The notes beneath the pieces were generated by a model. That model ran no database searches and was not told the DNA's origin. It was given only the letters and a program-made list of their open reading frames with translations. A stretch of 64,000 nt of DNA, taken from the IMG/VR virus record IMGVR_UViG_3300021255_000054. One strand, written 5' to 3'. Positions within the stretch are counted from its first letter, which is position 1. Every line of letters starts with the position of its first letter. Origin of the DNA: a virus. Its lineage: Duplodnaviria > Caudoviricetes. Shown piece by piece: positions 46,941-64,000 of the stretch. The translations under genes and the position numbers were made by a program.

Positions 46941-47246
46941 ATGGAAATGACTTATCACGTAAAGGTTCAGAGGGCAAACCGGGTACAGCATATCATTAAT
47001 GATATCGGTATGGGCCAGATTGTTAAGGAGAAGTTTGTAAACAACTGCTACACCTGTATTACTGATACTGGCATTACCATTATCAAGTCAGCTGACAAGC
47101 TGAAGATTGTAACTATGTATGTTACAACCTACAGAGAGCTGGTAAAGGTTTATGAAGGAACCAAGCGGATTCCTCCGTACCTGAAGAAGCGGGTTGACCG
47201 CAATCAGTCTAAATATACTAATGATGGGAAAACAATTTGGAGGTAA
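46941..47246 (+). CDS. Cassette hypothetical protein
   Basis: GGGAGG RBS. Confidence 0.8.
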   Translation: MEMTYHVKVQRANRVQHIINDIGMGQIVKEKFVNNCYTCITDTGITIIKSADKLKIVTMYVTTYRELVKVYEGTKRIPPYLKKRVDRNQSKYTNDGKTIWR

Positions 47247-47252
47247 GCTGAA

Positions 47253-47585
47253 ATGAAGATCGCAGTTACTCAATGGTATGAATTGACGGATGAACAGGTA
47301 CAAGAGTTAATTAATAATATGTATGAAGACTTAGACTCTGTACCAGCTATGAATTATGTTGAAGAAAGGTTAATGGATTATTGCGCTTCTATGTTCGCAG
47401 ATACTTTTGAAGTTACTAACAGCGATGATGAAGTTGAAGAAATCTACAATGAAGTTAAACGCAGGATTGAAAGCGACGTTAAATTACAGTTAAAGCGTAA
47501 AATTGCAGAACTTGAAAAAGAAATTGCTAAGAGTAGAGAAGAATTGAAAACCGCGCGGGAAAAACTTTTGAGAATGGACGAGTAA
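47253..47585 (+). CDS. Cassette acidic/coiled-coil protein
   Basis: GGAGG RBS; second gene of the cassette. Confidence 0.75.
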   Translation: MKIAVTQWYELTDEQVQELINNMYEDLDSVPAMNYVEERLMDYCASMFADTFEVTNSDDEVEEIYNEVKRRIESDVKLQLKRKIAELEKEIAKSREELKTAREKLLRMDE

Positions 47586-47679
47586 TCGTCCATTATTATA
47601 TTAGATGTTAAACATCTAATTCTAATATTTGACTTAATTTCATTTTTATGATATTATATCTATGCAAGGAGGGGATAAG

Positions 47680-47832
47680 ATGAGTAAGAAACAGAAACCC
47701 ACCCCTAAAACTTGGGTTGAAGTATTTCAAGGAGAACGGAAGGAGTTTCCACAGGGATATTGCGTCACTCGTATTATCCCAGACAAGCGCAAGAAAGCAC
47801 CAAAACATAAGGAAAGGGAGTTTGATGACTGA
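47680..47832 (+). CDS. Small basic protein (50 aa)
   Basis: AAGGAGG RBS; first of a four-gene cassette. Confidence 0.65.
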   Translation: MSKKQKPTPKTWVEVFQGERKEFPQGYCVTRIIPDKRKKAPKHKEREFDD

Positions 47833-47999
47833 TGCCTTGGTGGTGGGATGTTCGTAATGTAATCAATAATAAGTTGATTCGCTTTCTGTTAAATCGTTGT
47901 GTGATTGATAGTTGCACCCTTCGTAAAATTGTTTATAAAGTATCTAATTATGAATTACAGCCAATTATGGACGAGAAGGAAAAGGAGTTTGACGAATGA
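47832..47999 (+). CDS. Small protein (55 aa)
   Basis: TGATG coupling; GGGAG RBS. Confidence 0.55.
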   Translation: MPWWWDVRNVINNKLIRFLLNRCVIDSCTLRKIVYKVSNYELQPIMDEKEKEFDE

Positions 48000-48157
48000 A
48001 ATATAAATGGGTTATCATGCAGGAACTTGAGGATAGTGGTTGCGCGAATCCTTATTTGATTGTAGATACCGAAAAGCGCGCCGAAGAACTATGCTATAAG
48101 TTAGAATCCGAAAACCCGGGCTTTATCTTCTGGTCTTATATGTGTAAGGAGGAATAA
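47996..48157 (+). CDS. Small protein (53 aa)
   Basis: ATGA coupling; AAGGAG RBS. Confidence 0.65.
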   Translation: MKYKWVIMQELEDSGCANPYLIVDTEKRAEELCYKLESENPGFIFWSYMCKEE

Positions 48158-48158
48158 T

Positions 48159-48368
48159 ATGAATATTGTTACTCGTACCTATTACATCCCCCGTAACCAG
48201 ATTGGGCGCTATGTAATGAATTATATTGTTGAAAAGGTTGGTTGCTCTGTCGGTGAATTTAAGTTGAATCGTCAGGCCGAAACTATTCGTTTCTCTATCA
48301 CTTGCAAAATTAACGATGTACCTACCGTTGAAAAGATTTTGCGGCTTTATGATATGTTAGGGGAGTAA
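48159..48368 (+). CDS. Cassette hypothetical protein
   Basis: AAGGAGG RBS. Confidence 0.7.
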   Translation: MNIVTRTYYIPRNQIGRYVMNYIVEKVGCSVGEFKLNRQAETIRFSITCKINDVPTVEKILRLYDMLGE

Positions 48369-48445
48369 TTTCCCCTTCAAATAATTAGATGTTAAACATC
48401 TAAAACAAAGCGTTGACTTTTCCCGAAATTTGAGTATAATAATAA

Positions 48446-48526
48446 TTGTTCCGAGGGACGGAAGGCGATGGAACACCGTGGCAAGTGCCGGCTTACCCAC
48501 AACTTGCGCACCGCCCCTCGAACAAA
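48446..48526 (+). ncRNA. Putative small hairpin RNA
   Basis: Follows TTGACT-16-TATAAT; ends pair (TTGTTCCGAGGGACGG / CCGCCCCTCGAACAA); no ORF. Confidence 0.45.
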
Positions 48527-48654
48527 AAATTTTCAGACTAATACTTGACTTTCAAGTAGAAATCTGATATAATGAAGATGTTCCAAGGGAACAAAAATAA
48601 AATTGTGCAGGGCGGTCTGCCGTAAACTAAACCGCAGAGAAAAAGGAGTAAATT

Positions 48655-49146
48655 ATGAAGACTGCTGAAATTATTTCTAAGATCATGGAAATCCCCGGTG
48701 CTACTATGGGTCGTGCGAACAAGACCAACTTTATCGTTGTTCCTACTGAGGACGGTTACAGCAAGGTTAGCGTGACTGCCGCTCTGGCTAAGGACACCAA
48801 GAACCACAGCGCTTTCAATTATGAAGCCGCTGTTGCCGAGTACAAGGCTTGGGAAGCCGAAGCCGCTCTCCGCGCCGCTGAACGTGCTAACAAGCCCGTT
48901 AAGGTCAAGGGCCCCAACCCCGAAGCCGAAGCTCGCCGTCAGGCTCTTGATGCCGCCATCACCGCTCTTCCTTCCTTCACGAATGCTACTGCGACCGATG
49001 TGTTTAATATGTTTGCCGAGGGTGAACAGCCCAAGACCGTTATGCTTGTCGGTTCTGCTCTTAAGCGTCTTGTCGAAGCGGGCGTTGTAGTTGCTACCAA
49101 GTCCGAGGACGCCAAGGACAAGAAGACCTATTACACTAAGGCGTAA
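48655..49146 (+). CDS. Putative DNA-binding protein with C-terminal winged helix
   Basis: ATATDVF..VGSALKRLVEAGVV..KKTYY; strongly biased codon usage. Confidence 0.65.
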   Translation: MKTAEIISKIMEIPGATMGRANKTNFIVVPTEDGYSKVSVTAALAKDTKNHSAFNYEAAVAEYKAWEAEAALRAAERANKPVKVKGPNPEAEARRQALDAAITALPSFTNATATDVFNMFAEGEQPKTVMLVGSALKRLVEAGVVVATKSEDAKDKKTYYTKA

Positions 49147-49297
49147 TTCCCAGCCCCTAACGGGGCTTTTCTTTTTGGGATTCTTTTTAGATGTTAAACA
49201 TCTAACTTATTGTATTGCAATTTCATTTTAAATATGATATTATACTTATGTAAACGAAAGGAGAAGGATACTCCCTAAAACCAGAAAGGAAAATGTT

Positions 49298-49585
49298 ATG
49301 AAGATTTGGACAGTTGAAGAATATATTGTTCTAGATGAGATTAGTTACTGCGTTAGTCAATTTTATGGTCATTGGGAATTTTCTACCAAAGAAAAAGCAA
49401 TTCAAGCAGTATATAATCATCTGCGCGAACTTAATATTGACGAAGAAGACATTAAAAATCATATTAAAGAATGGGATGAAGATGATGAACTACATCATAT
49501 GAGAACTAAATTTGATAACTATGATATGTATGATTGCCGTTATGATATTCGGATGATCGAACTTGATCAGAAAATCGAAATTTAA
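49298..49585 (+). CDS. Cassette acidic protein
   Basis: AAACCAGAAAGGA leader. Confidence 0.75.
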   Translation: MKIWTVEEYIVLDEISYCVSQFYGHWEFSTKEKAIQAVYNHLRELNIDEEDIKNHIKEWDEDDELHHMRTKFDNYDMYDCRYDIRMIELDQKIEI

Positions 49586-49725
49586 GGGCTTTGCGCCCTT
49601 TTCATATTTAGATGTTAAACATCTAATTTCATTTTAAAATTGCCTATTGACTTTCCTATTACTCTATGATATACTTATTCCAGAAAGTGAAGGAAAACAC
49701 TTAGAAACCAGAAAGGGATTGACTG

Positions 49726-50172
49726 ATGACGATTTGGTTTGATATGGATGGAACTATTGCGAACCTGTACGGCGTTGACGGTTGGCTTGATATGCTTCGA
49801 GCTTATGACCCGAAGCCCTACGCAGAAGCTGAAGTTATGCTGAATATGAGTGTGCTTGCGCGATATCTGCATAAGGCACAGCGAGCTGGAATCTCTATCG
49901 GGATTATCAGCTGGCTCAGCCGCTCCTCTACCCCTGAATATGATGAAGCTGTTGAAGAAACTAAGCTGGGCTGGCTTGCTGAACATCTCCCCTCTGTAGA
50001 TTGGGATGAAATCAACATTGTCGATTATGGTACCGATAAGTCCATCTTTATGAATAGTGATGAAGATATTCTGTTCGATGATGAACCCAAGAACCGTGAA
50101 AACTGGGATGGACTCGCTTTCACTCCCGATGAGATTATGGAAGTCTTGAAGGGACTGACGAAAGGGCGGTAA
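49726..50172 (+). CDS. HAD-superfamily phosphatase (5'(3')-deoxyribonucleotidase-like)
   Basis: FDMDGTIANL motif I, IIS motif II, K, ILFDD motif IV. Confidence 0.8.
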   Translation: MTIWFDMDGTIANLYGVDGWLDMLRAYDPKPYAEAEVMLNMSVLARYLHKAQRAGISIGIISWLSRSSTPEYDEAVEETKLGWLAEHLPSVDWDEINIVDYGTDKSIFMNSDEDILFDDEPKNRENWDGLAFTPDEIMEVLKGLTKGR

Positions 50173-50293
50173 GCCCTTTTTATTATAATTAGATGTTAAA
50201 CATCTAATTATATTCGTTGACAATTTTATTTCAATTTGATATACTACTTATGAAAGTTGAAGGAAAACAACTCAAACCGGAAAGGGTACTCGT

Positions 50294-51052
50294 ATGTATG
50301 TAATGATCTTTGATACTGAAACTACCGGACTGGACAAGCCTTTCTGTTATGATGTAGGCTATTTTATCGTCGATACTGATAGGCATTTTACTGCAGAACA
50401 GCGGCATTTCGTTATTGAACAGGTTTGGCACAATCTGCCGCTTTTTGAATCTGCGTACTATAAAGACAAGCGTCCGCAGTATGTCCAGCTTATGCGCAAA
50501 CGTCTTGCCATTATGGACAAATGGGGTTACGTTATGCAACAGATTAAGCGCGATCTGCGTAAGTATAATGTAACTGACGCTTATGCTTACAATTCTGATT
50601 TTGATGACAAAGTGTTCGCTTTCAACTGTGATTGGTTTAAATGCAATAATCCTCTTGAAGATATCGCAATTCACGATATTTGGGGCTATGCCAGTCAGTA
50701 TATCACAAATACTCCCGAATATAGGGCTTTCTGTGAAACACATAGTTTCTTTACTGATACGGGTAACTACAAGGCCAGTGCAGAAATTGTCTATCGGTAT
50801 CTTTCCGGTGTAGTGGATTTTGAAGAAAAGCATATGGGGCTTTATGACGTAGGGATTGAAGCGTTTATTCTTGATGAATGTATTCAACTTGGAGCAGAAT
50901 GGAATCTTGACTATAAGGTCAACCGCATTCTCCCCAGACAGATTGAAAAACCTTTTCAGATTTTCGTAGACGGCGAATGTATTGTATCGGACAATTATAT
51001 TAAGAAATATGTTCGTAACGATGTATACAAATTCACTACGGCCCAGTCCTAA
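50294..51052 (+). CDS. DEDDh 3'-5' exonuclease
   Basis: FDTETTG, AYNSDFD, HMGLYD. Confidence 0.85.
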   Translation: MYVMIFDTETTGLDKPFCYDVGYFIVDTDRHFTAEQRHFVIEQVWHNLPLFESAYYKDKRPQYVQLMRKRLAIMDKWGYVMQQIKRDLRKYNVTDAYAYNSDFDDKVFAFNCDWFKCNNPLEDIAIHDIWGYASQYITNTPEYRAFCETHSFFTDTGNYKASAEIVYRYLSGVVDFEEKHMGLYDVGIEAFILDECIQLGAEWNLDYKVNRILPRQIEKPFQIFVDGECIVSDNYIKKYVRNDVYKFTTAQS

Positions 51053-51307
51053 AACTGGGCCTTTCTTTCTTAGATGTTAAACATCTAAAACAAGTAATTG
51101 ACTTTTCCTAAAATTGTGATATACTTATAACTGTCAAGAGGAGATGCGAGGTAGAGAAAATGAGAAGCGCGCCTCTGAGTTCGAGAGACAAGGGCAAAAG
51201 AAATTCAAAAGAATTTCAAAAAACCTCTTGACAACTTCCCAAACTTATGATATACTTAATACGAAAACAGGGGAAGGAAAACCCCACAAACCAGAAAGGA
51301 TACTATT

Positions 51308-51646
51308 ATGAAGAAGACTTCTATGGAAAGACTCGTTGGTTACATCAATGACAATGCCGTTACTGACCTGTTTGATATTCGTGATGAGATGACGGCCGAA
51401 CTCAAGAAGAACAAGGATAAGGCGGACGCTAACCGCGCCCTGTATGAGGAAGCGCACGATATCGTGATCGACGCTATCCCGACCGAAACTCCCGTCACCG
51501 TTGCCGAACTGTTTGAAGCGATTGAGTCCGAACTGCCGGAAGGCTTCACCAAGGCTAAGGTGAATTACGCTCTTACCCATTACTGGGAAGAGGATGTGAA
51601 TAAGATTCCCGGTAAGGTTAACTCCTATACCCGTAAGGTGAGCTAA
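51308..51646 (+). CDS. Putative winged-helix DNA-binding protein
   Basis: PVTVAELFEAI..KAKVNYAL..GKVNSY; paralogue of 55523..55852. Confidence 0.65.
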   Translation: MKKTSMERLVGYINDNAVTDLFDIRDEMTAELKKNKDKADANRALYEEAHDIVIDAIPTETPVTVAELFEAIESELPEGFTKAKVNYALTHYWEEDVNKIPGKVNSYTRKVS

Positions 51647-51803
51647 TGCTCACCTTTTTCTTTTACAAGGAATTAGATGTTAAACATCTAAAATTGTATA
51701 CAGTATTCTTTTAAAAAAATGCTTGACAATTTTTCAAATTTATAGTATACTTATTCCAGAAACGGAGAAGGAAAACTCCACAAACCAGAGAGGAGCAATG
51801 CTT

Positions 51804-52214
51804 ATGAATAAGGCACAGCTTGAAACCGCTATTCGCAATGACTTTCTTGATTCTATTATGAAGTATATCTCTGAATCCCGTGAAACTGATGTGCTCCCTG
51901 TTAGCGCAAACGAACTTGCCGTTCCTTGTCTGGATGCTGAGGGCAACGAAAAGTGGGTTCTGATTAAGGTTTCTATTCCTCGTGGTAGCCGTAACGGCGA
52001 AGGCGGATACGAACCTTATGATGGTTATTCTGTCGCAGAAGATTACCAGTTTGACCTTGCTGATAAGGCAAAAAAGAAACGTGTAGCGGAAGAACAGAAA
52101 GCCAAGAAAATCGCGGCTGATGAAAAGAAGCGTGCGGAAAAGAAAGCGCTTGCCGAAGCGAATAAGAATCTGAAAGAACTCCGTAAGATTAAGGTTACTC
52201 CCGAAAGGGAGTAA
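51804..52214 (+). CDS. Hypothetical protein with Lys/Ala-rich tail
   Basis: Paralogue of 52342..52722 (DAEGNEKWV vs DLNGIERYV). Confidence 0.75.
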   Translation: MNKAQLETAIRNDFLDSIMKYISESRETDVLPVSANELAVPCLDAEGNEKWVLIKVSIPRGSRNGEGGYEPYDGYSVAEDYQFDLADKAKKKRVAEEQKAKKIAADEKKRAEKKALAEANKNLKELRKIKVTPERE

Positions 52215-52341
52215 CCCAATTTCATCCCGAGTTATTAGATGTTAAACATCTAATTATTCTATGTTGACATTTCCCAATATCTATGCTATACTATCCACGA
52301 AAGGTGAAGGAAAACACCAGAAAACCAGAAAGGAAATTGAA

Positions 52342-52722
52342 ATGCCTAAGATTTCTAAGACTGTTGTTGACAAGGCTCTGCGTGATGGTATTTTCTTTGA
52401 TATGTTCCAGAATGATTGTGGAATGTATGACTATGTAAAAATCAATGACCGCCAGTATGGCACTATCATTACCGATTTGAACGGCATTGAACGCTATGTG
52501 CGCATTGGCGCGATTGTCGCAGAAGAACGTGAGGATATGACTGCGCGCGAACTTATGCAGAAGGAAATTGATGAGTATAAGGCCAAGCAGGCGGAAAAGG
52601 CCGAAAAGGCTAAGAAGAAGGAAGAAAAGATTGCCAAGGATAAGGCCAAGCGCCAGAAGGAACAGGAACAGGAAGAAGAAGATGACCCTAACCAGTTTCT
52701 TCCTAATGAAGTGACGGTTTAA
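52342..52722 (+). CDS. Hypothetical protein with Lys/Glu-rich tail
   Basis: AAACCAGAAAGGA leader, ATG 52342. Confidence 0.75.
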   Translation: MPKISKTVVDKALRDGIFFDMFQNDCGMYDYVKINDRQYGTIITDLNGIERYVRIGAIVAEEREDMTARELMQKEIDEYKAKQAEKAEKAKKKEEKIAKDKAKRQKEQEQEEEDDPNQFLPNEVTV

Positions 52723-52740
52723 TAGAAAGGAATGATAATA

Positions 52741-53010
52741 ATGTTGAAAGTCACAACCTATCCTCACATTGAAGATTCTGAAATTGCTCGTCTGTGCGGT
52801 GAAGATGTAGCCGAACATATGTCTCTTCACTATGAAGCCAAAAATGGTACAAGTGAAAGCTTTTGTGTTCTGACAGAAGAAGAAATCAAAGAACTTGAAG
52901 AAGATGAAGATGATTGGTTTGATGAAAAATGGAAACTTGGCCTGACTAAAATGTTACTGGAAAATGGCTTCAAGCACGGCGATAGAGTATATATTGATTT
53001 CTTTTGGTAA
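52741..53010 (+). CDS. Acidic hypothetical protein
   Basis: GAAAGG RBS. Confidence 0.7.
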   Translation: MLKVTTYPHIEDSEIARLCGEDVAEHMSLHYEAKNGTSESFCVLTEEEIKELEEDEDDWFDEKWKLGLTKMLLENGFKHGDRVYIDFFW

Positions 53011-53027
53011 GAGTGGAGGAAAAGAAA

Positions 53028-53219
53028 ATGCCTGATGAAAAATGCCCCAATTGCTTATCGGGAGAATATGATGTTGATAATTACTGGGATGATTTTGATG
53101 AAGACGGTGGTATCAGAGTATGGGAATGTATTTGTTCCTCCTGTCATAAAAAATTTGATATCACATATGAATATAAATGCATCAAAACAACAGTTGAAAT
53201 AGAGGTTAGCGCAAGCTAA
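53028..53219 (+). CDS. Small Zn-ribbon protein
   Basis: CPNC..CSSC; GGAGG RBS. Confidence 0.7.
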   Translation: MPDEKCPNCLSGEYDVDNYWDDFDEDGGIRVWECICSSCHKKFDITYEYKCIKTTVEIEVSAS

Positions 53220-53354
53220 CCTCTTTCTTTATATATTAGATGTTAAACATCTAATTCTTTCCCTTGCAATTTCCCTATAACTATGGTATTATATCATTGT
53301 TCCAAGGGGAACACGAAAGAGGAAGGATACCTCACAAACCAGAAAGGTTACTAT

Positions 53355-54341
53355 ATGCGCAAAGAACTCCGTTATATGGTTTTGGACACTGAGACCGCCA
53401 CTCTTCCCTTTGCTAATGAAATTGCCCAGAATAATCCTGAGAAGAAGAAAAAAATTGCTATCGCTCGCCCTCTTGTGTATGATATTGGTTGGACTATCAC
53501 CAACCGCAAGGGCGAGATTTTGGATAAGAAGCAGTTTCTGATTGCCGAAACTTTTGCCGTTCCCGCCGTGTTCAATACTGCATATTATGCAGAAAAGCGG
53601 CCGCTCTATCTGGAAATGTTGAAAGAGAACAAGACCTCTATCAAGCCGTGGGGCGAAGTGATGGAACTCTTTGTTGAAGATCTTCAGCAGGTCGATGCCG
53701 TTGGGGCATACAATGCAATGTTTGACTTCAAGAAAGCAATTCCCTTTACTGAACTGTACATTAACAAACTGTACAGCCCTGATTATCAGAATTGGGAGTT
53801 CCTTCAGCGCAAGATGTGTACTAAGATTGCTAACGAGAAGTATCAGAAGAAGGAAGAAAAAGAATTTGATGGTGATTTCTTCACCTTCCGTGGCAAGTCT
53901 TATCCTCTGTTTGACCTTTGGGGACTTGCGACCAAGCACCTTTTGAATAACGCCACTTATAAGAAACAGTGCCTTGACCATAATCTTTTAACCGCAAGCG
54001 GAACATTCTTCAAGACTAGCGCCGAATCTTCTTTTCAATATCTATGCGACCGCTATGATTTTGAAGAAAGTCACACCGCACTTGATGACGCTATGATTGA
54101 AACCCATATTCTTTCTTGTGTAGCCAAGAAGCACGCTATCTCTACTGGAATTACTTTCTTCCCCTTCCGTGAATTGGGTACTACTACTGAATTTGTAATG
54201 CGTAGGAAAACTCCTCACATTAATGAAGTAATGGTAGTATATGAAGCAATCATAGCATATATTGAAACCAAGGAAGAATCTCGGTACGTGGTTGGATTGC
54301 GTAATATGTTGAAAGAATTGGAAGAATATATGGCGGGATAA
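53355..54341 (+). CDS. DEDDh 3'-5' exonuclease (second paralogue)
   Basis: LDTETAT, AYNAMFD, HTALDDA; shares AYY..KR..Y and DxWG with 50294. Confidence 0.85.
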   Translation: MRKELRYMVLDTETATLPFANEIAQNNPEKKKKIAIARPLVYDIGWTITNRKGEILDKKQFLIAETFAVPAVFNTAYYAEKRPLYLEMLKENKTSIKPWGEVMELFVEDLQQVDAVGAYNAMFDFKKAIPFTELYINKLYSPDYQNWEFLQRKMCTKIANEKYQKKEEKEFDGDFFTFRGKSYPLFDLWGLATKHLLNNATYKKQCLDHNLLTASGTFFKTSAESSFQYLCDRYDFEESHTALDDAMIETHILSCVAKKHAISTGITFFPFRELGTTTEFVMRRKTPHINEVMVVYEAIIAYIETKEESRYVVGLRNMLKELEEYMAG

Positions 54342-54473
54342 CCGCCATATTTCATTTCAGATTATTAGATGTTAAACATCTAAAAAGAAATATTGACTTT
54401 CTCCTAAAATTGAGTATAATATAATCATCAGGTGAAGGAAAACACCGAAACACCAGAAAGGAAGTTTAAAACT

Positions 54474-54683
54474 ATGAAGAAGCCGATTACCGTTCGTGTC
54501 AAGAAAACACTGACTTTTGATGAAACTGACGTGTGTAGCATCGCCAAAGATATGTCATATACTTTCTGGAACTCAGGATATTTTGAAGACATTGAACCCA
54601 GCGATATTGATGATGAAGATTTCGCAGGTCTGGTTCGCGCCATCGCCGATGAGTTTCAGAAAATTGTGGAGGAAGATAAATAA
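54474..54683 (+). CDS. Small acidic protein
   Basis: CCAGAAAGGA leader. Confidence 0.7.
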   Translation: MKKPITVRVKKTLTFDETDVCSIAKDMSYTFWNSGYFEDIEPSDIDDEDFAGLVRAIADEFQKIVEEDK

Positions 54684-54786
54684 TATGGAAATTAATGTGC
54701 GTGCGAAACATATATTCAATGAGGACTAATAGTCCTCTTTTTTATTTATAATAATTAGATGTTAAACATCTAATAAAAAATGGCGC

Positions 54787-55050
54787 TTATCGCGCCAACT
54801 TCAGAATCCGTTTGAACCAACTAACTTTCTCTTCGTAAATAGGTTCAACAGTAATTTCATAGATAATCTTATGCTTTTCTCTATCCATCAAATACAGACG
54901 AGGACTTCCCATATAATACCATACAGTTTTTCCTCTCTCGTGAACAAAATCCAAAATAGCTTTATCAGGAATATGTCTATCAAATTCCTGACCGCCATAC
55001 ATAATATCCAAACCATCTTTCTTAGGGATATACACAAGGCGCTTTTTCAT
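54787..55050 (-). CDS. Hypothetical protein (inverted cassette)
   Basis: TAATG coupling with 55050..55205; terminator at 54775-54797. Confidence 0.7.
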   Translation of the reverse strand: MKKRLVYIPKKDGLDIMYGGQEFDRHIPDKAILDFVHERGKTVWYYMGSPRLYLMDREKHKIIYEITVEPIYEEKVSWFKRILKLAR

Positions 55051-55205
55051 TATCCAATCACCACCTGAATTTCCATATTCTCTCCACACTTATACTGAAT
55101 CAAATCATTAGCCCGCTTTTCCGCTTCTTCCATAGTATTAAAAACTTCATTGACCTCAACAAAATAACCAAGGGGCCAGCACGTACCAGTCAGACGATAC
55201 TTCAT
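55050..55205 (-). CDS. Small protein (51 aa, inverted cassette)
   Basis: Minus-strand TTGACT-16-TATAAT at 55237-55264; GGGAG RBS. Confidence 0.65.
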   Translation of the reverse strand: MKYRLTGTCWPLGYFVEVNEVFNTMEEAEKRANDLIQYKCGENMEIQVVIG

Positions 55206-55522
55206 TCCATCATCGCTCCCTTCATTTGATAATTACATTATACTCAGATTTTCCTAAAAGTCAACTACCATTATTAGATGTTAAACATCTAACTATTAGT
55301 GGTTGACTTTTCTCTAATTTGTGATATACTTATAACTGTCAGAGGGAGAACGGGAGCGGAAACAAATCTCCTTGGAAACAGAAGACCCGATGTTTCTCTT
55401 GACCGAAAATAAAAGGGAGAAAATTTTCGGAAACCTCTTGACAAGCTTCCAAAACTGTGGTACAATAACCACGAAAGATGAAGGGAAGGAAAACCCTAAA
55501 AACCAGAAAGGAAATGAAACCT

Positions 55523-55852
55523 ATGAAAAAGACTACTATGACCGCCATCGTTACCGCTCTGACTGCTATCGACTCTGAGAAGTATTCCGACCTGATCGCC
55601 GAAGTTAATGCCGAACTGAACAAGGGCGCGGAGCAGAAGCAGAAGAATGCCGATGCCTATGAGTCCATCCACGATCTGGTTGTTGGCAATCTGGGCGATG
55701 CTCCTTGCACCTGCGCCGAACTGTATGAAGCCATCAAGGATGAACTGCCTGATGGTATGGGCAAGGGCAAGGTTCAGTATGCTCTGACTCACCTGTGGCA
55801 GGATGAGATTGTGAAGATTGAGGGTAAGCCGAATACCTATCGGAGGGCGTAA
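55523..55852 (+). CDS. Putative winged-helix DNA-binding protein
   Basis: PCTCAELYEAI..KGKVQYALTH..GKPNTY; paralogue of 51308. Confidence 0.65.
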   Translation: MKKTTMTAIVTALTAIDSEKYSDLIAEVNAELNKGAEQKQKNADAYESIHDLVVGNLGDAPCTCAELYEAIKDELPDGMGKGKVQYALTHLWQDEIVKIEGKPNTYRRA

Positions 55853-55861
55853 GCCCTCCAC

Positions 55862-56208
55862 GGGTTGTGCGGTAAGACATCGGCTCGCACAGATACGTAG
55901 AACATCGGTGGATTAAGCGTATCAACCACGAGGAGATTTCTGAAGGTTTACAGTGTGGCTAAACAACTAAAGCCTTCCCACGAGGGTTTCCAAGGGCTTT
56001 CAGTGTGGTTAAACAACATAAGCCCTTTTATATGGCGATGGAGGGACACGGCCTACCCCACAGTTAGCAAGTTCGACTCTTGCCGTTGCCACGACTTACC
56101 TAGTGGCAGAAGCCCTATCCACTTAAAAACGTGGGCGGATGAAGTAGACCATCAAAGCAACTACAGTGAGGGCGCTTACCCCACAACCGCCTTCGGGCGG
56201 TATTTTTA
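55862..56208 (+). ncRNA. Putative ~340-nt structured RNA with tRNA-like domain
   Basis: Closing stem GGTTGTGCGGTAAG/CTTACCCCACAACC; twin hairpins; acceptor-like stem GGCGATG/CGTTGCC with T-arm GCAAG-TTCGACT-CTTGC (56034-56091); terminator ACCGCC-TTCG-GGCGGT. Confidence 0.55.
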
Positions 56209-56311
56209 TTTTCAATTATTAGATGTTAAACATCTAATTAAAGGTATTGCAATTTTCCTATAATATGATATAATAGCATTGTTCCAAGAGGAACGGAAAG
56301 GATGAAGTAAA

Positions 56312-56515
56312 ATGGAAAAACCTATTCGCAAATTTCAGTACATCAATGCATATGGTATCAAGAAACAACTTAATGTATATGAAATGGTCAATAATAAGTA
56401 TCCAGTAGAACTGTGGGCAACTAGATATGGGGAATATTGTGGGTCAGGTGAAATGACGAAACAAGAACTTAACGATTATTTAGAGCACTTTGGTATTACG
56501 GAAAGGATGGAATAA
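56312..56515 (+). CDS. Cassette hypothetical protein
   Basis: AAAGGA RBS. Confidence 0.7.
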   Translation: MEKPIRKFQYINAYGIKKQLNVYEMVNNKYPVELWATRYGEYCGSGEMTKQELNDYLEHFGITERME

Positions 56516-56516
56516 A

Positions 56517-56759
56517 ATGAAAATTTATGAAGTTATCGAGTATGTAGATAATGCAGAAAATGCTTTTGGCTACTATTCTTCTCTTGAAAAGGCACAGCAG
56601 GGAATTTTGACACGAGTAAAAGATGCTTATACAGATGAAGAGATGAAAGCTTTTCATTTTGATGAAGATGGATATGGCTATTCGACCACAGAAAATGAAT
56701 GGGTAGCCGCTTGTGATTATGTAATCTTTGAACACGAATTGGATAAGGAGATGGAGTAA
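56517..56759 (+). CDS. Acidic hypothetical protein
   Basis: AAAGGA RBS; ATG 56517. Confidence 0.7.
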   Translation: MKIYEVIEYVDNAENAFGYYSSLEKAQQGILTRVKDAYTDEEMKAFHFDEDGYGYSTTENEWVAACDYVIFEHELDKEME

Positions 56760-56760
56760 A

Positions 56761-57015
56761 ATGCAGACAATTAAAAACTGGTTCGGCATTGAAACTTCCT
56801 ATAAGTTTGAATGGAATGACCTTCGTTGCGGCATTACTATCTTGAATGTAGTTCTGATTATGCTCTTTGGCTTGCAGGTATCTTGGTTCGGGCTTGCAAT
56901 CGCGCTCTTTGGTGTGTGTAAAGACCTCTCCCAGCATCGGCATATCAATGATATTCTTATGCACTTGTCTAGTGTAGTATTGAATGTATACTTCCTTTCC
57001 CTTCTGTATAGGTAG
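56761..57015 (+). CDS. Small membrane protein ending in TAG
   Basis: Three hydrophobic segments; TAG 57013-57015 lies in a terminator-like hairpin. Confidence 0.7.
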   Translation: MQTIKNWFGIETSYKFEWNDLRCGITILNVVLIMLFGLQVSWFGLAIALFGVCKDLSQHRHINDILMHLSSVVLNVYFLSLLYR

Positions 57016-57127
57016 GCAATGCCTATCTTCCATACTTAGATGTTAAACATCTAAAAGTTTCTCTTGCATTTTTTCCAAAGTATGATATAATTATATCGTT
57101 CCAAGGGAACAGAAAGGATGATTGAGA

Positions 57128-57403
57128 ATGCGTGAACTATATGAAAAATACTACACTATCAGATTGTGGTTTCAGCCCGATGACCGTGTGACCCCAGACA
57201 TCATTGACCTTGAAGGCGAGTATGATTCTGAAGAAGAAGCAATAGTATTCGCGCGAGAACACATTCCTCTTACTTTTGGATGGGAACATATTATTGTTCC
57301 TCATTATCGAAAACTTTCAAATTTAAAGTTGACAAATACTCCTAATGGTGATATAATGATGATGATCTCGAAAGGAAAGGAAAGGAGTAATGAGAGTGAA
57401 TAA
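57128..57403 (+). CDS. Cassette hypothetical protein
   Basis: AAAGGA RBS; 3' end overlaps internal promoter 57329-57357. Confidence 0.6.
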   Translation: MRELYEKYYTIRLWFQPDDRVTPDIIDLEGEYDSEEEAIVFAREHIPLTFGWEHIIVPHYRKLSNLKLTNTPNGDIMMMISKGKERSNESE

Positions 57404-57560
57404 CATCATTCCGATTGATTCTGAGGAAAAGGAACTTTGTTGTTTGTGTATATTAGGTCTTGTGCTTTATGATTATATGACACCTTCGGCAAGACAATTA
57501 TATGATACTCTTACTGAAGAAGACAAGCAAGAGATTAAGAAAAAATTTATAAAAGGATAA
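57390..57560 (+). CDS. Small protein (56 aa)
   Basis: AAAGGAG RBS; own TTGACA-17-TATAAT promoter. Confidence 0.55.
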   Translation: MRVNNIIPIDSEEKELCCLCILGLVLYDYMTPSARQLYDTLTEEDKQEIKKKFIKG

Positions 57561-57648
57561 TGAGTATGAAGTATCAGTACTACAAGGGAGAGTAAAACTC
57601 TCCCTTTTATTTTTAGATGTTAAACATCTAAATAAAAAAGTATGCACA

Positions 57649-58197
57649 TTAGTGCATACAATTCGTGAAATTACAGTAGCCAGCCGAACAAGCATAATCT
57701 ACAACTACTCCCTTTCCCTTATACATACCCACATTCCAAGCGTGCAGGTCACACATATATTTCTTCAGGAAAGCCCGTTCATCATCATCCCAACCATACT
57801 CCATTTCAGCATAATCATAGTTCCCAACATGATTGACTTTCCGCATAGCATAATAATACTTTCCGTCAATCATAAAGCGGTACATAGGCGCGAGAAGATA
57901 GGAATAAGGAGTCCGACTCAGCTTCTGGTAAACTTTATATTCCTGTTCGCATCCACCAATACGGCCGCAAGCCTTATCATCATAATCTATCTTAATCACA
58001 TAGTCCGGCCCAATCAGGCAGATACGCGCGCTCCCATAATCCATCTCAATATGGCGATGATATTCCATATTAAAGGACTCTACTCCTTCTTCTACATAGC
58101 CACGGCGATCATATTTATTCATTATATCAAAATCAGGAATATATTGCGCAAACTGCTTCATAAACTTTTCAGCCCGAATCTGCCAAGGATTAGCCAT
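57649..58197 (-). CDS. Protein kinase-like fold enzyme
   Basis: YGSARI (P-loop), YVIKI, E helix, DLHAWNVG catalytic loop, VVDY. Confidence 0.75.
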   Translation of the reverse strand: MANPWQIRAEKFMKQFAQYIPDFDIMNKYDRRGYVEEGVESFNMEYHRHIEMDYGSARICLIGPDYVIKIDYDDKACGRIGGCEQEYKVYQKLSRTPYSYLLAPMYRFMIDGKYYYAMRKVNHVGNYDYAEMEYGWDDDERAFLKKYMCDLHAWNVGMYKGKGVVVDYACSAGYCNFTNCMH

Positions 58198-58307
58198 CTC
58201 TCAAACACCCCTTTCTTGATTACGGGATAAGTATATCATAAGTTAAGAAAAGAGTCAATAGGATATTTTAGATGTTTAACATCTAACTTACTGAGGGGCT
58301 TTCGCCC

Positions 58308-58751
58308 TCAGTCGATAATATCTTCAACAGGAACATTATACCATTCCTTAATCCGTTTATACAACATCCGTTTAGTACCACCAAACATCCAACTATCCTC
58401 AGTTTCTACTAACTGATTAGTATCAAACAAAACAATATCAAGCACATCACTATAATAGCCATTCTGCTCATTGTAACACGGCACGAAGAAAGACCGCTGT
58501 CCGCATAACCTAATTCCTGCTCTCCTTCTCCACGCTACTTCTTCAATTCGCAAATCAGAAAAATCTGTATCCATCAATCCGGCTTCATCTTTAATATAAT
58601 CCCAATTAGCATATACATTCTCACAGCAATCCTGACTATGAGTATCGATCAGAAGCCACCCATTATCAAATAAAATACCACCATTGGCATCAAATGAAGT
58701 CTTACTCAGAATCTCATCACCATCATAAACAAACCGCGCAATCTTAACCAT
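58308..58751 (-). CDS. Hypothetical protein
   Basis: HSQDCCENVY and YNEQNGYYS motifs; own promoter and leader. Confidence 0.75.
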   Translation of the reverse strand: MVKIARFVYDGDEILSKTSFDANGGILFDNGWLLIDTHSQDCCENVYANWDYIKDEAGLMDTDFSDLRIEEVAWRRRAGIRLCGQRSFFVPCYNEQNGYYSDVLDIVLFDTNQLVETEDSWMFGGTKRMLYKRIKEWYNVPVEDIID

Positions 58752-58868
58752 AACTTACTCCCTTCTGGTTTCTAAGGTATCCTTCCTTTTATGTATGTAT
58801 TATATAATAAAGTAATAGAAAAGTCAATAAGGAATTTTAGATGTTAAACATCTAACTTCTCAAGACCG

Positions 58869-59273
58869 TCAAACGGTCTTGCAATAGAAACACCATTTAA
58901 TATCAAAAATATATTTCAATTCAAATCCTTCTGATTCAAGCAGATGCCGCATTCCCGCATTATCATCCCACGGAGTTGCCCCAACATTACCGTGTACAAT
59001 TTTAGTAATTTCTTGTAGAGCATATCGAGCGATACCTTTACCTTGATTTTTCTTATTACAAATACATAATCTTTTAATAGCGGTATAATTATATTGCGGT
59101 TCGGGTACAAGCGAAACAGTCGCCAATACTTTCTCGTTATCCGCAACAACATACAGCCGCCGCTGTCTATAATCCAAGTCCACTTGTGCCGGAGTAAGAT
59201 ACGTAAGATGCTTATATCTTAAAGCATTAATAACTTTCATTAAATCTTTATGTGTTGCTAATCTCAATTCCAT
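58869..59273 (-). CDS. GNAT-family acetyltransferase
   Basis: IKRLCI..NQGKGIA acetyl-CoA motif; N..MRHLLESEGF. Confidence 0.82.
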   Translation of the reverse strand: MELRLATHKDLMKVINALRYKHLTYLTPAQVDLDYRQRRLYVVADNEKVLATVSLVPEPQYNYTAIKRLCICNKKNQGKGIARYALQEITKIVHGNVGATPWDDNAGMRHLLESEGFELKYIFDIKWCFYCKTV

Positions 59274-59373
59274 ACCATACGCTCCCTTCAGGTGATAGCT
59301 ATATTATAGCATGAATAGGAGAAAAGTCAAGCGACATTTTTAGATGTATTACATCTAAATTTATAAAGAAGGC

Positions 59374-59988
59374 TCACGCCTTCTTCTCTGCAATTATTTT
59401 AAATATAGCCGGATTACTAAATGCTTCACATAATTTATAATAAGCAGTTTCATTTACATAAAACCATTCATTAGCTCTCTGAGCTTTAGCATAAGCATAT
59501 TTTTCTAAATATTGATGGCAAAAACGTTCTGCTCTATCCGACTTTGTAGTTTCATAATATCCACCAATATATAGCATAGGATTATATGTAGCATAAGAAG
59601 ATACACGAGAATAAAGATTCTTCGCTCTTCCAACCTTAACCAAATAATATTTCTCGCCAGCGGGATTGATTCCAATCATTCCAAGAAAGTACACTCCCTC
59701 TGTACAAGGCAGCTCATCTGTTTTGGCACAATTGATTTCTAATGTAGGAATTTCATCTTTTAATGTTTCATCTTTTTTATGCACTCCCGCTTTATCATAT
59801 ACATAATGAAATTCTAAGCCATATCTGGCATTTGCACTCAAAGGGGAACGAAAATCATGATAAATACATTCCAATGTAGCTTCAGAAATATTTCCATCTT
59901 CATCTGAAAAGAACTCAACCATATTATTCCAGTGATATGTAGCAATACGTTCTTCAATTTCCTGTTCATATTTATACATTCTTTCCAT
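59374..59988 (-). CDS. GIY-YIG superfamily (T5orf172-like) protein
   Basis: GVYFL..VKVGRAKNLYSRV..AERFCH..NEWF. Confidence 0.7.
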   Translation of the reverse strand: MERMYKYEQEIEERIATYHWNNMVEFFSDEDGNISEATLECIYHDFRSPLSANARYGLEFHYVYDKAGVHKKDETLKDEIPTLEINCAKTDELPCTEGVYFLGMIGINPAGEKYYLVKVGRAKNLYSRVSSYATYNPMLYIGGYYETTKSDRAERFCHQYLEKYAYAKAQRANEWFYVNETAYYKLCEAFSNPAIFKIIAEKKA

Positions 59989-60066
59989 TCTCCCTTCACT
60001 TCATGAGTACATTATATCAGAAATTTATGAAAAGTCAATAATATAAATTAGATGTTATACATCTAA

Positions 60067-60480
60067 TTTCACTCCCTGTCAAATATTGTATCCAATATCC
60101 AGTATCCAGTATCCAAAATCCCGCATCCAGTATCCAATCGCATCTCGCGCCCACTGTCAAATACTTGACAAGCTGGAAAAGCTGGAACTTGCCGCGCAGA
60201 ATTAACTAAGCAAATTAAGCTGGAAGTTCTATTCCTACCGAGCTGGAAAAAAATTAATCCCACGAAATTTTATATTACGAGAAGCTGGAAGATTCCCGTA
60301 TGAGATAGGAATACAAGGAGACGCCGCAATATGAAACTCCGTGGGAGCTGGAAATTTGCCGCTAAAAATCCGCTGAGAAGCTGGAATTGGATACTGTATA
60401 CAATTTGAATTTAAGCTGGAATTGTATACAAAATACTGGATACAAAATACTGGATACTGTATACAATTTCATCTTAAATT
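60067..60480 (+). repeat. Non-coding repeat-rich block
   Basis: TCCAGTA heptads 60090-60135; eight AGCTGGAA 60171-60421; TGGATACTGTATACAATTT twice (60388, 60451). Confidence 0.75.
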
Positions 60481-60489
60481 TAATTAAAA

Positions 60490-60747
60490 TTAAACATCTA
60501 ACTTCTCCATTTCTTCCCAGCGCCAATCTTGTACATCTTTTCGATATCCATGATATTCATCAAGTTCTACTTTTGGCCCATCAATAACAACACATAAACC
60601 TATACGAGGAGCATAATAAAAATCTTGTGTCATTTTATATGAAGGAAAATACCACTGTTCCTTATATAATGTAGCTATTTCTGTTAACAAATCTATTGGA
60701 GCCTCAATGTCTAAAATTTTTAACCATTTTGCGTGCTTACTATACAT
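60490..60747 (-). CDS. Hypothetical protein
   Basis: AAGGAGG RBS; stop codon lies in a palindrome half-site. Confidence 0.65.
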   Translation of the reverse strand: MYSKHAKWLKILDIEAPIDLLTEIATLYKEQWYFPSYKMTQDFYYAPRIGLCVVIDGPKVELDEYHGYRKDVQDWRWEEMEKLDV

Positions 60748-62101
60748 TATTTAATCCCTCCTTAGCTGCTAATAATGCTTCAAATTGTTTATCTACTAAT
60801 TCTGCATCGTGCCATTCACCCGTAATATAATAACACTATGTCTATTTCCCATCAATACGCTTTCGCGCGGATTCAACATTATATCCTGCCATAGGTAGCA
60901 CATCTTTTAATTTATTCCAAGTCATAATACGAGACGTGCGCTTCCTATTATCATCTACATCTGCGACTGCCATTTCTTCTGCCAGTTCTCTGCACTCTCC
61001 TACTGTTAGCCAACGCTCACGATATTTTTCTGGAATAGTCGGCACCCATACACGGATGTGCCGCTAGTAAGGAAACGTCATACGTGCCGCCTGAATTCGT
61101 TCATCACTGCGGAAAGAATTAACAATTAAATGACTAAAACGTTCATCATCTATGGTAATACCTTCACGTAAAGCTGCATTAACGACTACAAAGTTATAAG
61201 GCGGTGGAATAATATGGTCTTGTATAATTGATTCTAATACGCGCAATTGTTCTTTATCCATAGGCTTTTCTGTATTACTTCTTGAATGAATTTCAATAGC
61301 CTTGAATCCTTGTCTATTTGCGGCAGCTACGATTCCTTTATTAGGTTCAATAAATGGAGAATAGCACCAATAGCATGCTCCATTATCAGGATCTAAAGTT
61401 TTAATATGTTCTAGTATATTAGTAAAATAAACATCTTGAGTTAATCTATATCCTGCATCAATTTTACCTTTATAGCTCGCGCTAGTTAATAAATTATAGT
61501 ATTCTAGTACGCGTTTTGGAGTTGCGGACATACCAATACAATATATATCTTCATGTTGAATAATCTTTTCCCAAAAGCCTAATAAAATTAAAGGCATATA
61601 TTCTGGTTTAGAAGAAGAAGCTTGTATATGTACTAACACTTCACTACTAGTAATATCATTGCGCGCAAAATCAGTACTGCGCGCCTAGTTAAATGCATTT
61701 ATCGCAAAGTCAAACACAGCGTCACATTCGTCCCAACAAATGACATCTAACTCTTTTAAGAAATCCATATCTTTTGCTTTAAGTAATTTAAATCCAAAAC
61801 GCTGGTAACACATAATACCAATTTTATTGGGCGCCTCACCCCAAGTCTTTCCGGGCTGCCAAAATTCATCTGCATCACAGCACTGCGGATATTCTGCTAT
61901 AATCTAATCGCGCAATATCGTAGTAGGAACTAAAATCAGAATACGATTATATTGTTTATCGCGCGTAAAGTCTATTAACCTATTTGCAGCCCAGTATGTT
62001 TTGCCAGTCCTTATGCCACAATCTAGGATATTAAATAAGCCCTTCTATAAAGTAATTTCTCCTTGTAAATACTTGTCATCTACTGTTACCATTGGTAACA
62101 T
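60737..62101 (-). CDS. SF2 (DExD) helicase-like protein, 454 aa (TAG=Gln)
   Basis: CGIRTGKT, ILVPT, WDECD, MSAT, LREGITI, QAARM; GGAGG RBS; promoter TTGACA-17-TATAAT at 62125-62153. Confidence 0.82.
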
Positions 62102-62325
62102 ACTACCACCTCCAGTATATAATTATTATATTATAAATTCAAGAAAATGTCAAGTGTTCATTTTCTGTCACTAAAATGTAAAAAGCAACTCACTCAATGA
62201 GTATATTTTCTTCACAGGTAATAAATTTTTAACTAAAATTTTTGAGCTGATTTTTGACGACACCCCCCCCCCCTATAATGTAATAAAAAAAATACTCACT
62301 TTTTATAATAAAAAATTCCCTTATA

Positions 62326-62382
62326 TAATTAATAAATGGGATGCGGAGCGCCGAAGGCGCGGAGCGTGCCATTTATTAATTA
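62326..62382. other. Long inverted repeat beside an AT-rich tract
   Basis: TAATTAATAAATGG..GCGCC-GAA-GGCGC..CCATTTATTAATTA; near-pure A/T at 62407-62480. Confidence 0.6.
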
Positions 62383-62814
62383 GGCGACGCGCAGCGGCGC
62401 CCAACAAATAATTTTAAATAAATTATCAAATTTCATTTTTAATTTTAAAATAATAAAATAAATTAAAATTTATTATTTAACTTGCCCGAAAACAACCCCT
62501 ATTTTATTATGTCAAATACTTGACTTGAAGTAATTTTGTATGATATAATAAGATAGAAAAAGAAAATCCTATGTTTTTAACTTATACGTGAATGTTTGAC
62601 AAAAGTAGCAAATTTGGCACGTACCCATATTATCCCTCTCTCCACCCGCAATTTCGTATCTCCCCTCAATCCGTCTATCTCCCACACCCTCCCTTCTACG
62701 CCAACCCCTATTCTACCCCTATCCTTTCCTTCTTTTTAACTATGTCTCGATGTTCCATTTTGTTTAAATGGAATTTTGTTTTTAACCATAAATTCACCAC
62801 TGAGGTGATTCAAT

Positions 62815-63105
62815 TTGAATTTAAAATCCCAATTGAAATATTTAACGGACGAAGACGGTCCAAATATACCATTACGTACCCTCGCACTCTATTGCGCGGT
62901 TTCGCATACCACGCTAAGTAAATGGTTAAATGATAAGATTAATGTGAGTGAGGAACTATAGTAGTAGATATAGGATGGTATTAAGGATTTCGTACTAGAT
63001 GTATGCGGAGTGATGGATGACAATGACAGGTTTTATTATAGATACCTACAACCCGAGGAGTATGAGAGATAGAAATTGCGCGATAAGTACGTTCTAGGTA
63101 AATAA
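62815..63105 (+). CDS. XRE/Cro-like HTH protein with TAG-TAG-TAG run (TAG=Gln)
   Basis: GAGGTG RBS, TTG start; IPLRTLALYCAVSHTTLSKWLNDKINVSEEL then TAG TAG TAG ATA TAG. Confidence 0.65.
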
Positions 63106-63253
63106 GAGTTAGTATGCAATTAAAGAAGTAGAAATTGGATTGGATGGATTGCCGCAAATCGACTAGGTAATTGGGCAAGAGTTCCCATTAAGTATTTTTA
63201 AAGTGTACAACAGTGTCGAAGAGGCAATGGAGTATGTAAGGAAGGTGAGATAA
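63017..63253 (+). CDS. Hypothetical protein (TAG=Gln)
   Basis: GGAG RBS; three TAG; TAA abuts ATG 63254. Confidence 0.55.
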
Positions 63254-63961
63254 ATGGCAACTACTAAAACTTTTTCTTATAGATATAATTTTACAAATAA
63301 ACCCGCTACTTTTAATTTGCCTACTCCTTTAAATTCATTACGAATGAGTAACTATTTTAGTGTAATTTCTAATTATACAGTTAGTTGGAATATAAATGTT
63401 TCAATTCATAATAGTGGTAGTAATGTATCTTCTAGTGTTTGGCTACTATTTGGTTCATCTTAGCCATAGCCTATAAGTTCTGGTACATATAAAGCATCAT
63501 TTTCAAACTTAGCAGGTAATAGTACGACTACTCTTAATATTACAGGAACTATGGGTTCAAAACCTTCAATTACTGATTTTTATAATTTAAATTATACAAT
63601 AGGATTTGGAAAAGCATCGTCATATATAACTATAAATAGTGCATCAGGCTATATAATATGGTCTTTTACTATTAATAACTTTCCAGCTAAAGGAGAAATT
63701 ATTTCTTCTTCTGAATTAGATGCATATAATAGACTAGTTACTATAAGTGATCATGATTTTAATCATACTGGAGTTATTACTACTGCGCATGGAAAAGCTC
63801 CATATAATAATACTAATACGACAAATGGTGCAGGAACATTTTATTTAACTTCTGGTTCATCATCTGGAGGTTTAGGTTCAGATTCAGTTTCTGATCCTAT
63901 TTCAGTTACTCCATTAAATAATTTAATTAATATAATACCAACCCCGCGTGTTTTTACGTAA
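63254..63961 (+). CDS. Ser/Thr/Asn-rich protein, possibly a virion fibre (TAG=Gln)
   Basis: Joins 63254..63463 and 63551..63961 through two TAG. Confidence 0.65.
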
Positions 63962-64000
63962 AAGGAGAATTTCATTATGGAAATGAATGTTTGGAAGCTT

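Follow-up and report, generated by a model that had tools for sequence, protein, structure and literature searches.

The 64,000-nucleotide (nt) stretch of viral DNA analysed here (hereafter the window; IMG/VR virus record IMGVR_UViG_3300021255_000054) contains, at positions 62815-63105, a gene for a small helix-turn-helix (HTH) protein, P0001, in which four of five consecutive codons are TAG. As judged from sequence comparisons, this gene is real and conserved. We propose that it encodes an accessory, probably dimeric HTH regulator and that its run of TAG codons is a by-product of a Gln-rich sequence and of the codon usage of the phage; we put the probability of this reading at roughly 0.6. 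The DNA target of the protein and the timing of its synthesis we only infer.

A conserved gene in a TAG-recoded phage

The window corresponds to bases 49718-113717 of one 189,572-bp phage genome, whose ends overlap by 108 bp, indicating a circular or terminally redundant molecule. Coverage by open frames of at least 100 codons reaches 0.89 when TAG is read through (table 15), against 0.62 under table 11, and 126 of the 223 open reading frames (ORFs) of at least 80 codons carry TAG. A tRNA with anticodon CTA (CUA) was found by ARAGORN at genome positions 165546-165630, first in an array of 25 tRNA genes. In a comparison of six helicase orthologues, Gln shows the strongest enrichment opposite TAG (8.4-fold), with Glu and Lys next; moreover, TAG faces CAA or CAG at some aligned sites in homologues (nine neighbouring orthologue pairs between the window and the related locus L001). 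The phage is of the TAG=Gln recoded type surveyed in 10.1101/2021.08.26.457843. The type of its promoters (TRTGnTATAAT) and its GGAGG ribosome sites suggest a Firmicute as host; a blastn search of window positions 60000-64000 against deposited phages returned no match.

The suppressor tRNA(CUA) measures 85 nt; its long extra arm and its 3-bp D-stem are unusual for a Gln-type tRNA. It also has U1-A72 and G73, as does the tRNA-Gln of E. coli. The label 'Pyl' given to it by ARAGORN is due solely to the anticodon.

The HTH gene itself shows what is expected of a gene translated with TAG as Gln (code 15), namely constrained sequence past its TAGs, a phage-encoded tRNA(CUA) and TAG aligned with Gln (Gln51 is CAA in the relative P0007). 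Its frame runs from a TTG at 62815 to a TAA at 63103-63105, and the TTG start is backed by an ATG at the aligned position in three relatives. Five TAGs lie in frame, at 62959-61, 62962-64, 62965-67, 62971-73 and 63070-72 (codons 49, 50, 51, 53 and 86), with an ATA at 62968-70 between the third and the fourth. Under table 11 the frame shrinks to a 48-amino-acid (aa) ORF, 62815-62961; under table 15 it gives 96 aa. The main features of the gene are as follows.

62815-63105, plus strand: coding sequence of the HTH protein P0001, 96 aa with TAG as Gln; core residues 1-72, tail 73-96.
62802-62807, plus strand: Shine-Dalgarno sequence GAGGTG, 8 nt upstream of the start; relatives have GGAGGT at the aligned position.
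62959-62973, plus strand: the TAG-TAG-TAG-ATA-TAG run, codons 49-53, in the first turns of helix 4 (residues 46-67).
63070-63072, plus strand: fifth TAG, codon 86, which results from the conserved Asp-Arg codons (GAT AGA) in an overlapping partner gene.

An orthologue, P0002 (95 aa, from an ENA metagenome), is 70% identical to P0001 from end to end, and its 90% cluster also holds one member of 101 aa and two of 48 aa. The latter, P0004 and P0005 at loci L002 and L003, represent this gene as truncated at codon 49 by a caller that used the standard code. The DNA of L001-L003 was obtained, and these loci are syntenic with the window: a divergent ResIII-type helicase gene lies upstream and the same small genes, including the partner, lie downstream. 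Between the window and L001, the proportion of synonymous differences in the HTH gene (pS) is saturated at 0.75, whereas that of non-synonymous differences (pN) is lower, at 0.18 upstream of the TAG run and 0.29 downstream of it (codons 49-69). Because pN remains this far below pS, the sequence after the run is translated and constrained.

An exhaustive search of 1.84 billion representatives added twelve further small relatives of 51-78 aa and 22-47% identity, and all relatives with retrievable DNA need TAG=Q for their translation. Another small relative, P0015, which was available as protein, is 51 aa long, a length that suggests a stop at codon 51. The conserved core of the family ends near residue 72, and residues 73-96 form a clade-specific tail that overlaps the next gene. 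A related-locus search of IMG/VR with P0001 found no relatives. The HTH family, which comes with an overlapping partner gene, is narrow and unnamed, and so far is seen only in TAG-recoded phages. Standard-code gene callers cut it to 48 aa in public data, and small genes of recoded phages are systematically mis-annotated in this way. The preliminary description of this region, made from the sequence alone, had given the coordinates, the four TAGs in five codons and the 48-aa host-code product, all of which proved exact on re-reading; its claim that the gene had been missed and needs TAG read-through is borne out by the 96-aa frame conserved past the run.

Other ORFs of the region were rejected as genes. 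ORF 62592-62921 (plus strand, 109 aa) starts at an ATG that lies within a conserved intergenic block and is lacking in relatives, and its product is of low complexity. Two antisense ORFs, 62736-63023 and 62981-63178, show similarity only as the shadow of the sense genes.

Predicted fold and dimerization of the HTH protein

An AlphaFold2 model of P0001, based on a 15-sequence alignment, has a mean predicted local distance difference test score (pLDDT) of 83.6 and comprises helices at residues 3-11, 20-27, 31-38 and 46-67, the tail being less certain after residue 70.

62872-62928, plus strand: HTH motif; helix 2, residues 20-27, and recognition helix 3, residues 31-38; pLDDT 93-96.

The top Foldseek rows for this model are all HTH domains (MuB-N, DdrO, PurR, C.Esp1396I, CylR2 and P22 c2), with probabilities of 0.96-1.0 and a root mean square deviation (rmsd) of about 2 A over 52-57 columns; the E values, 0.2-0.9, are weak, as is usual for a small domain. 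The modelled protein has the four- to five-helix arrangement of Xre/Cro proteins, in which helices 2 and 3 form the HTH. Sequence profiles point in the same direction, with scores under the curated cut-offs. The best sequence-profile match is that of Lac headpiece residues 6-45 to the profile of the HTH family (E 0.002), and Pfam LacI matches P0001 with 18.5 bits (cut-off 27, E 0.0017), while Pfam HTH_3 gives 13.9 bits, below its gathering threshold of 23 (E 0.057). Nevertheless, P0001 does not belong to the LacI family: its headpiece score is below the cut-off, and the protein ends at residue 96 with no second, effector domain. P0001 is thus probably an Xre/Cro-like, LacI-headpiece-like four-helix HTH protein with predicted DNA binding. 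The HTH fold suspected earlier is borne out by the model and its structural matches; the TAG run, which had been thought to follow directly on the DNA-binding motif, is instead placed by the model within the HTH domain, where it would open helix 4.

Dimerization was modelled on the orthologue P0002, with an alignment of database relatives, in place of P0001. The homodimer model scored 0.67, against 0.01 for the best of three controls; as HTH dimers are common in the PDB, the score of 0.67 may partly reflect likeness to solved structures. The mark applied to such scores is reached by 20 of 30 proteins solved as one-chain pairs and by 1 of 23 solved as single chains. At least 56% of the contacts were common to the runs, with a pLDDT of at least 77. 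The predicted interface consists of residues 1-22 and 56-72. A stop at codon 49 would therefore remove half of it, as residues 56-72 lie past the run. To judge from this model, P0001 is probably a homodimer. Dimerization had been part of the preliminary description; the P0002 model supports it, with part of the predicted interface downstream of the TAG run.

The TAG run as a probable product of codon usage

In our preferred reading, the TAG run is a Gln-rich polar patch that opens helix 4 and is written in the common Gln codon of the phage, not a separately evolved sensor. TAG accounts for 0.37 of Gln codons when all TAG-bearing ORFs are taken together, and for 0.46-0.73 of them in large late genes. 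Its share in the HTH gene, 5 of 7, does not stand out clearly from a genomic 0.37-0.5 (p 0.07-0.2). All four Gln of the peptide QQQIQ are written as TAG with a probability of 0.14 when the gene's own 5/7 share is shuffled, and of 0.02-0.06 at the genome-wide share of 0.37-0.5; this is nominally unusual, but not significant given some 126 recoded genes.

Comparison with relatives leads to the same view. TAG49, TAG51 and TAG86 are TAG in all three relatives L001-L003, whereas codons 50 and 53 of the run are Glu/Gly and Lys there; conservation of the run, named earlier as a check, thus holds for two of its positions and not for the others. TAG86 is not independent, as it arises from the out-of-frame reading of the partner gene's conserved codons. 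For the nine neighbouring orthologue pairs, 8 of 15 conserved Gln that are TAG in the window are kept as TAG in L001, and retention in the HTH gene (3/3) is not distinguishable from this background (p ~0.15). The proposed role of the run as a code-switch sensor is unsupported beyond what holds for any recoded gene. Among more distant members, TAG occupies the conserved Gln51 in P0008, P0016 and P0019 and codon 50 in P0011. P0007 has TAGs at codons 13, 36 and 57, and its CAA at Gln51 partly realizes what had been named earlier as refuting the idea of a sensor, the use of CAA/CAG by relatives at these codons. Within the family, TAG is used for 12 of 16 Gln codons at 49-54 and for 9 of 19 elsewhere, which is not significant. 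No excess of TAG at the gate positions over its background codon share was found in these family comparisons.

A one-step change from GAG or AAG to a new Gln can yield only TAG or CAG. Because CAG is rare in an AT-rich genome, lineage-specific TAG gains would be expected on the polar face of a helix.

Several observations weigh against codon usage as the whole explanation. Apart from the run, no stretch of five codons in the 189.6-kb genome contains four TAGs, and the second-densest cluster has three in five. The HTH gene also ties for the top TAG density (5.2 per 100 codons, median 1.43), exceeded solely by an ORF that overlaps a tRNA gene. Lineages of the close clade each have their own added TAGs, at codons 50 and 53 in the window and at 54 in L001-L003. 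Finally, TAG occurs at codons 49-51 in seven of eight family lineages (among them the close clade, a paralogue, P0008, P0011, P0016 and P0019; P0007 lacks it), in three of them as the sole TAG; about 5.1 would be expected at a TAG share of 0.5 (P ~0.14). The sample is small, and selection for a TAG gate would be expected to give the same lineage pattern.

These observations are what one would expect if the run were a selected ultrasensitive gate, through which a dimeric regulator, made above a threshold of suppressor activity, drives or shuts a later step. With the lineage-specific gains, the run retains three to four TAGs, and transcription from the host-type promoter of the gene need not await late functions. 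Half of the predicted dimer interface lies past the run, and the general idea of a gate has been published for lysis genes (bioRxiv 10.1101/2021.08.26.457843). We nonetheless consider a selected gate unlikely. Neither retention nor codon share separates it from codon usage, and P0007, with CAA at Gln51 and TAGs at 13 and 36 within the HTH, shows that a bare-HTH product is not conserved. Furthermore, the family is missing from a complete recoded relative, and it is therefore not needed for the switch.

The number of TAGs bears on the same question. The preliminary description had supposed a steep dependence of this gene on suppression, but five TAGs are ordinary here: 29 genes have at least five and 13 at least ten, and one gene, for a 4525-aa virion protein, has 129. 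Yield drops with the number of TAGs irrespective of their spacing, so that the exponent is set by their number and a five-TAG gene is among the less demanding; adjacency might have some added effect, for example through local tRNA supply or release-factor context. Because genes with up to 129 TAGs are made, near-complete suppression is needed anyway. The sharper version of the gate, in which an output proportional to about the fourth to fifth power of suppression combines with obligate dimerization to give a threshold detector that times the rightward operon, seems to us more doubtful still. If a gate did operate, it would offer a testable example of a code switch coupled to transcription, an open point in the published model, and the regulator would rank as the first transcription factor demonstrated to read a genetic-code change.

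A further possibility is that the gene has two products, an early 48-aa fragment of helices 1-3 acting as a competitor or dominant-negative form and a full-length dimer that later replaces it. Under the host code, a stop at codon 49 follows with certainty from the sequence, and the close clade and the paralogue share its position. Headpieces of the LacI type, about 50 aa in length, are able to fold on their own, and P0001 resembles them, as the profile match indicates. However, helix 4 belongs to the confidently modelled domain and to the fold matches, and the 48-aa piece would therefore probably lack part of the core. Other members would stop at codon 13 or at 50-51, so that the family has no uniform fragment. 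We regard two products as quite improbable, and retain the reading of the run as a Gln-rich patch written in the usual codon.

The palindromes of the early cassette array

The TGT-N3-ACA palindromes to which the HTH protein had been proposed to bind are the core of a longer site, the 19-bp perfect palindrome TTAGATGTT-A-AACATCTAA. Its 34 near-exact copies all lie at genome positions 91651-109783 (window 41934-60066), in a TAG-free early cassette array, the majority 9-10 nt ahead of a consensus -35 box. Matches to TGTNNNACA number 46 where 13 are expected. Arrays of the exact 19-mer are also present in about 25 viral contigs of IMG/VR, 12-175 kb in length (loci L007-L062), and four large relatives have palindromes alongside a helicase orthologue that is 54-57% identical and carries 9-19 TAGs.

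Protein and site do not co-occur across these related phages. G002 is a complete genome (166,678 bp, terminal repeats) that carries at least 22 copies of the exact palindrome and a 56%-identical helicase with 9 TAGs; a search of it with the HTH family profile gave no match even at E <= 1, and at the syntenic place a different gene follows the conserved intergenic block. Only two of five palindrome-bearing genomes gave marginal, distant matches to the profile, located elsewhere. By BLASTP, the paralogue of the HTH gene and the distant HTHs of G003 and G005 have no detectable mutual relation. Conversely, L001 encodes an HTH orthologue whose recognition helix differs by one residue, and no palindrome occurs in its 15 kb, not even in the 2.7 kb next to the helicase, a region that contains four copies in the window. 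Because a site conserved base for base needs a conserved binder, the HTH protein is very unlikely to be the palindrome binder; the distribution in G002 and L001 contradicts the earlier claim, and removes the protein as a candidate for an array common to many large phages. That it ties the code switch to shut-off or activation of the cassettes through this site is the least probable of the alternatives and can be set aside, even though the site is real and strongly over-represented, a dimeric HTH protein such as the predicted one would suit it, the gene's own promoter has no palindrome, and the pentamer GATGT, also found in the half-site, lies some 60 nt upstream of all family members.

Promoter and leader of the HTH gene

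The HTH gene lies behind a promoter of the early-cassette type, conserved in L001-L003 and in distant family members. Its leader measures 265 nt, against 21-55 nt for most promoters of the genome, and the genes behind most consensus sigma-A promoters of the phage have no TAGs. The following elements were recognized.

62520-62549, plus strand: host sigma-A-type promoter, TTGACT, an 18-nt spacer and a TG-extended TATAAT; 11/12 match.
62593-62629, plus strand: conserved leader block, TTTGACAA, about 9 nt, then AAATTTGGCAC..ACCCATA; invariant in seven-locus alignments.
62630-62735, plus strand: C-rich, G-poor leader tract, predicted unpaired; leader fold z = -0.24.
62753-62784, plus strand: terminator/attenuator-like hairpin, arms TTCCATTT and AAATGGAA, a 5-nt loop, then a T-run; 9 pairs, A/U-rich.

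Across relatives the conserved block takes the form TTTGACAA, about 9 nt, AAATTTGGC(A/G)C..ACCCAT (L073:3365, L074:3466). It stands upstream of all HTH family members examined, in a single copy in the phage genome, and it is found as well at the syntenic place in G002 and G003, both without the HTH gene there. Because it occurs in relatives that lack the gene, the block is part of the helicase-side intergenic region and does not belong to the HTH gene. Block 62593-62629 matches neither a sigma-A nor a sigma-54 promoter; a sigma-54 reading of TTGGCAC was rejected, as there is no TTGC at -12.

In the C-rich tract, composition is kept in relatives and sequence is not; the leader also contains a pyrimidine run followed by GATGT. 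The hairpin lies 42-62 nt before the start codon and is unique in the genome. In L003 its pairing is kept through a C-G to U-A double change, while the recognition helix is unchanged. Because both arms changed under a constant recognition helix, an RNA terminator or attenuator is favoured over an operator at 62753-62773, which is the less likely reading. RNAalifold found no structure common to seven leaders, and the conserved leader blocks are thus sequence elements. A search of 62050-63300 against Rfam at E <= 1 gave two chance-level rows, and no T-box or other leader family.

Further upstream, the intergenic region 62100-62520, situated between the helicase gene and the divergently oriented HTH gene, shares several conserved elements with L001 and L003: an 11-C run before a TATA (~62227-62243), two GC-rich hairpins (~62335-62400) and stretches that are very AT-rich. 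The region, for which Rfam gave no match, might serve as an origin or a packaging site or encode a structured RNA.

Partner gene, paralogue and helicase

63017-63253, plus strand: overlapping partner gene, 78 aa, 3 TAGs; its frame differs from that of the HTH gene, the final 89 nt of which it overlaps.
60737-62101, minus strand: ResIII/DEAD-type helicase, 7 in-frame TAGs, with a perfect 12/12 sigma-A promoter at 62153-62125.

The pairing of HTH and partner genes is conserved in five lineages, with overlaps of 13-35 nt in the four others. Where the two overlap, the N-terminus of the partner is the better-conserved reading. The partner is modelled as a small beta-plus-helix domain (pLDDT 87.9), for which no convincing match came from Pfam, PHROGs, Foldseek PDB or VIA-wide (best Z 3.6).

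The paralogue is a 66-aa HTH protein encoded 5 kb downstream, shortly beyond the end of the window, at genome positions 117619-117819 (window-equivalent 67902-68102; L066:1462-1662), with an HTH_3 score of 22.2 bits against the threshold of 23. Its single TAG aligns with codon 49 of the HTH gene, and it is preceded by a 12/12 TG-extended sigma-A promoter of its own, with a leader of 122 nt. Downstream of it lie genes for a DUF5659 protein and an HTH_36-like protein of 142 aa.

Because the helicase has both a host-type promoter and TAG-dependent translation, this combination is not unique to the HTH gene.

Proposed role of the module

We propose that positions 62815-63105 encode a small, probably homodimeric Xre/Cro-like regulator. 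The gene opens a conserved module of two genes, which lies at the margin of the early-gene array in a circular TAG=Gln phage. The gene would be transcribed by the host polymerase from its sigma-A-type promoter through the 265-nt leader, whose hairpin may attenuate transcription. Full-length protein would appear only once suppression by the phage tRNA(CUA) is active, as for about half of the phage genes; before that, translation would stop after helix 3 and leave a 48-aa fragment without helix 4 and half of the predicted interface. The protein may then regulate locally, acting on its own module or on the rightward operon.

Comparison with known systems

In TAG- or TGA-recoded phages, stop-codon recoding has been described as a translational timer (Borges et al., bioRxiv 10.1101/2021.08.26.457843), and the reading of TAG as Gln has been shown experimentally in crAss-like phages (PMC9523058). 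The phage described here resembles the recoding-timer phages in its suppressor tRNA, its TAG-free early genes and its TAG-full later genes, the translation of which is blocked until the code changes. It differs from them in that the published preferential recoding concerns lysis and tail genes, not a small protein of transcription-factor type, and in that preferential recoding of the HTH gene is not statistically demonstrable.

In fold, P0001 is close to C.Esp1396I, the N-terminal domains of DdrO and P22 c2, and CylR2, with which it shares the arrangement of helices 1-4 at the rmsd given above. Like other small Xre/Cro proteins, the family is predicted, from P0002, to form homodimers via the helix that follows the recognition helix. 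It departs from them in a DGPNIP loop between helices 1 and 2, within the predicted interface, and in the sub-threshold HTH_3 score of P0001. The LacI/PurR headpiece, in turn, gives the best sequence-profile match, but P0001, at only 96 aa and 18.5 of the required 27 bits, has no effector-binding domain.

Dependence of a regulator on one special codon has precedents. In Streptomyces, the bldA tRNA(Leu-UUA) controls adpA, and an in-frame UGA in prfB senses release factor 2 (RF2); in both cases a single special codon is strictly conserved and its role experimentally proven. The logic first suggested for the HTH gene, synthesis dependent on the decoding of a special codon, is the same, although the likeness is a functional analogy only. 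In contrast to those systems, the HTH gene uses an ordinary Gln codon, the positions of its TAGs shift between lineages, and one relative has no TAG at the conserved site. The logic of the HTH gene would be that of the published recoding timer, and its fold that of small Xre/Cro or controller proteins.

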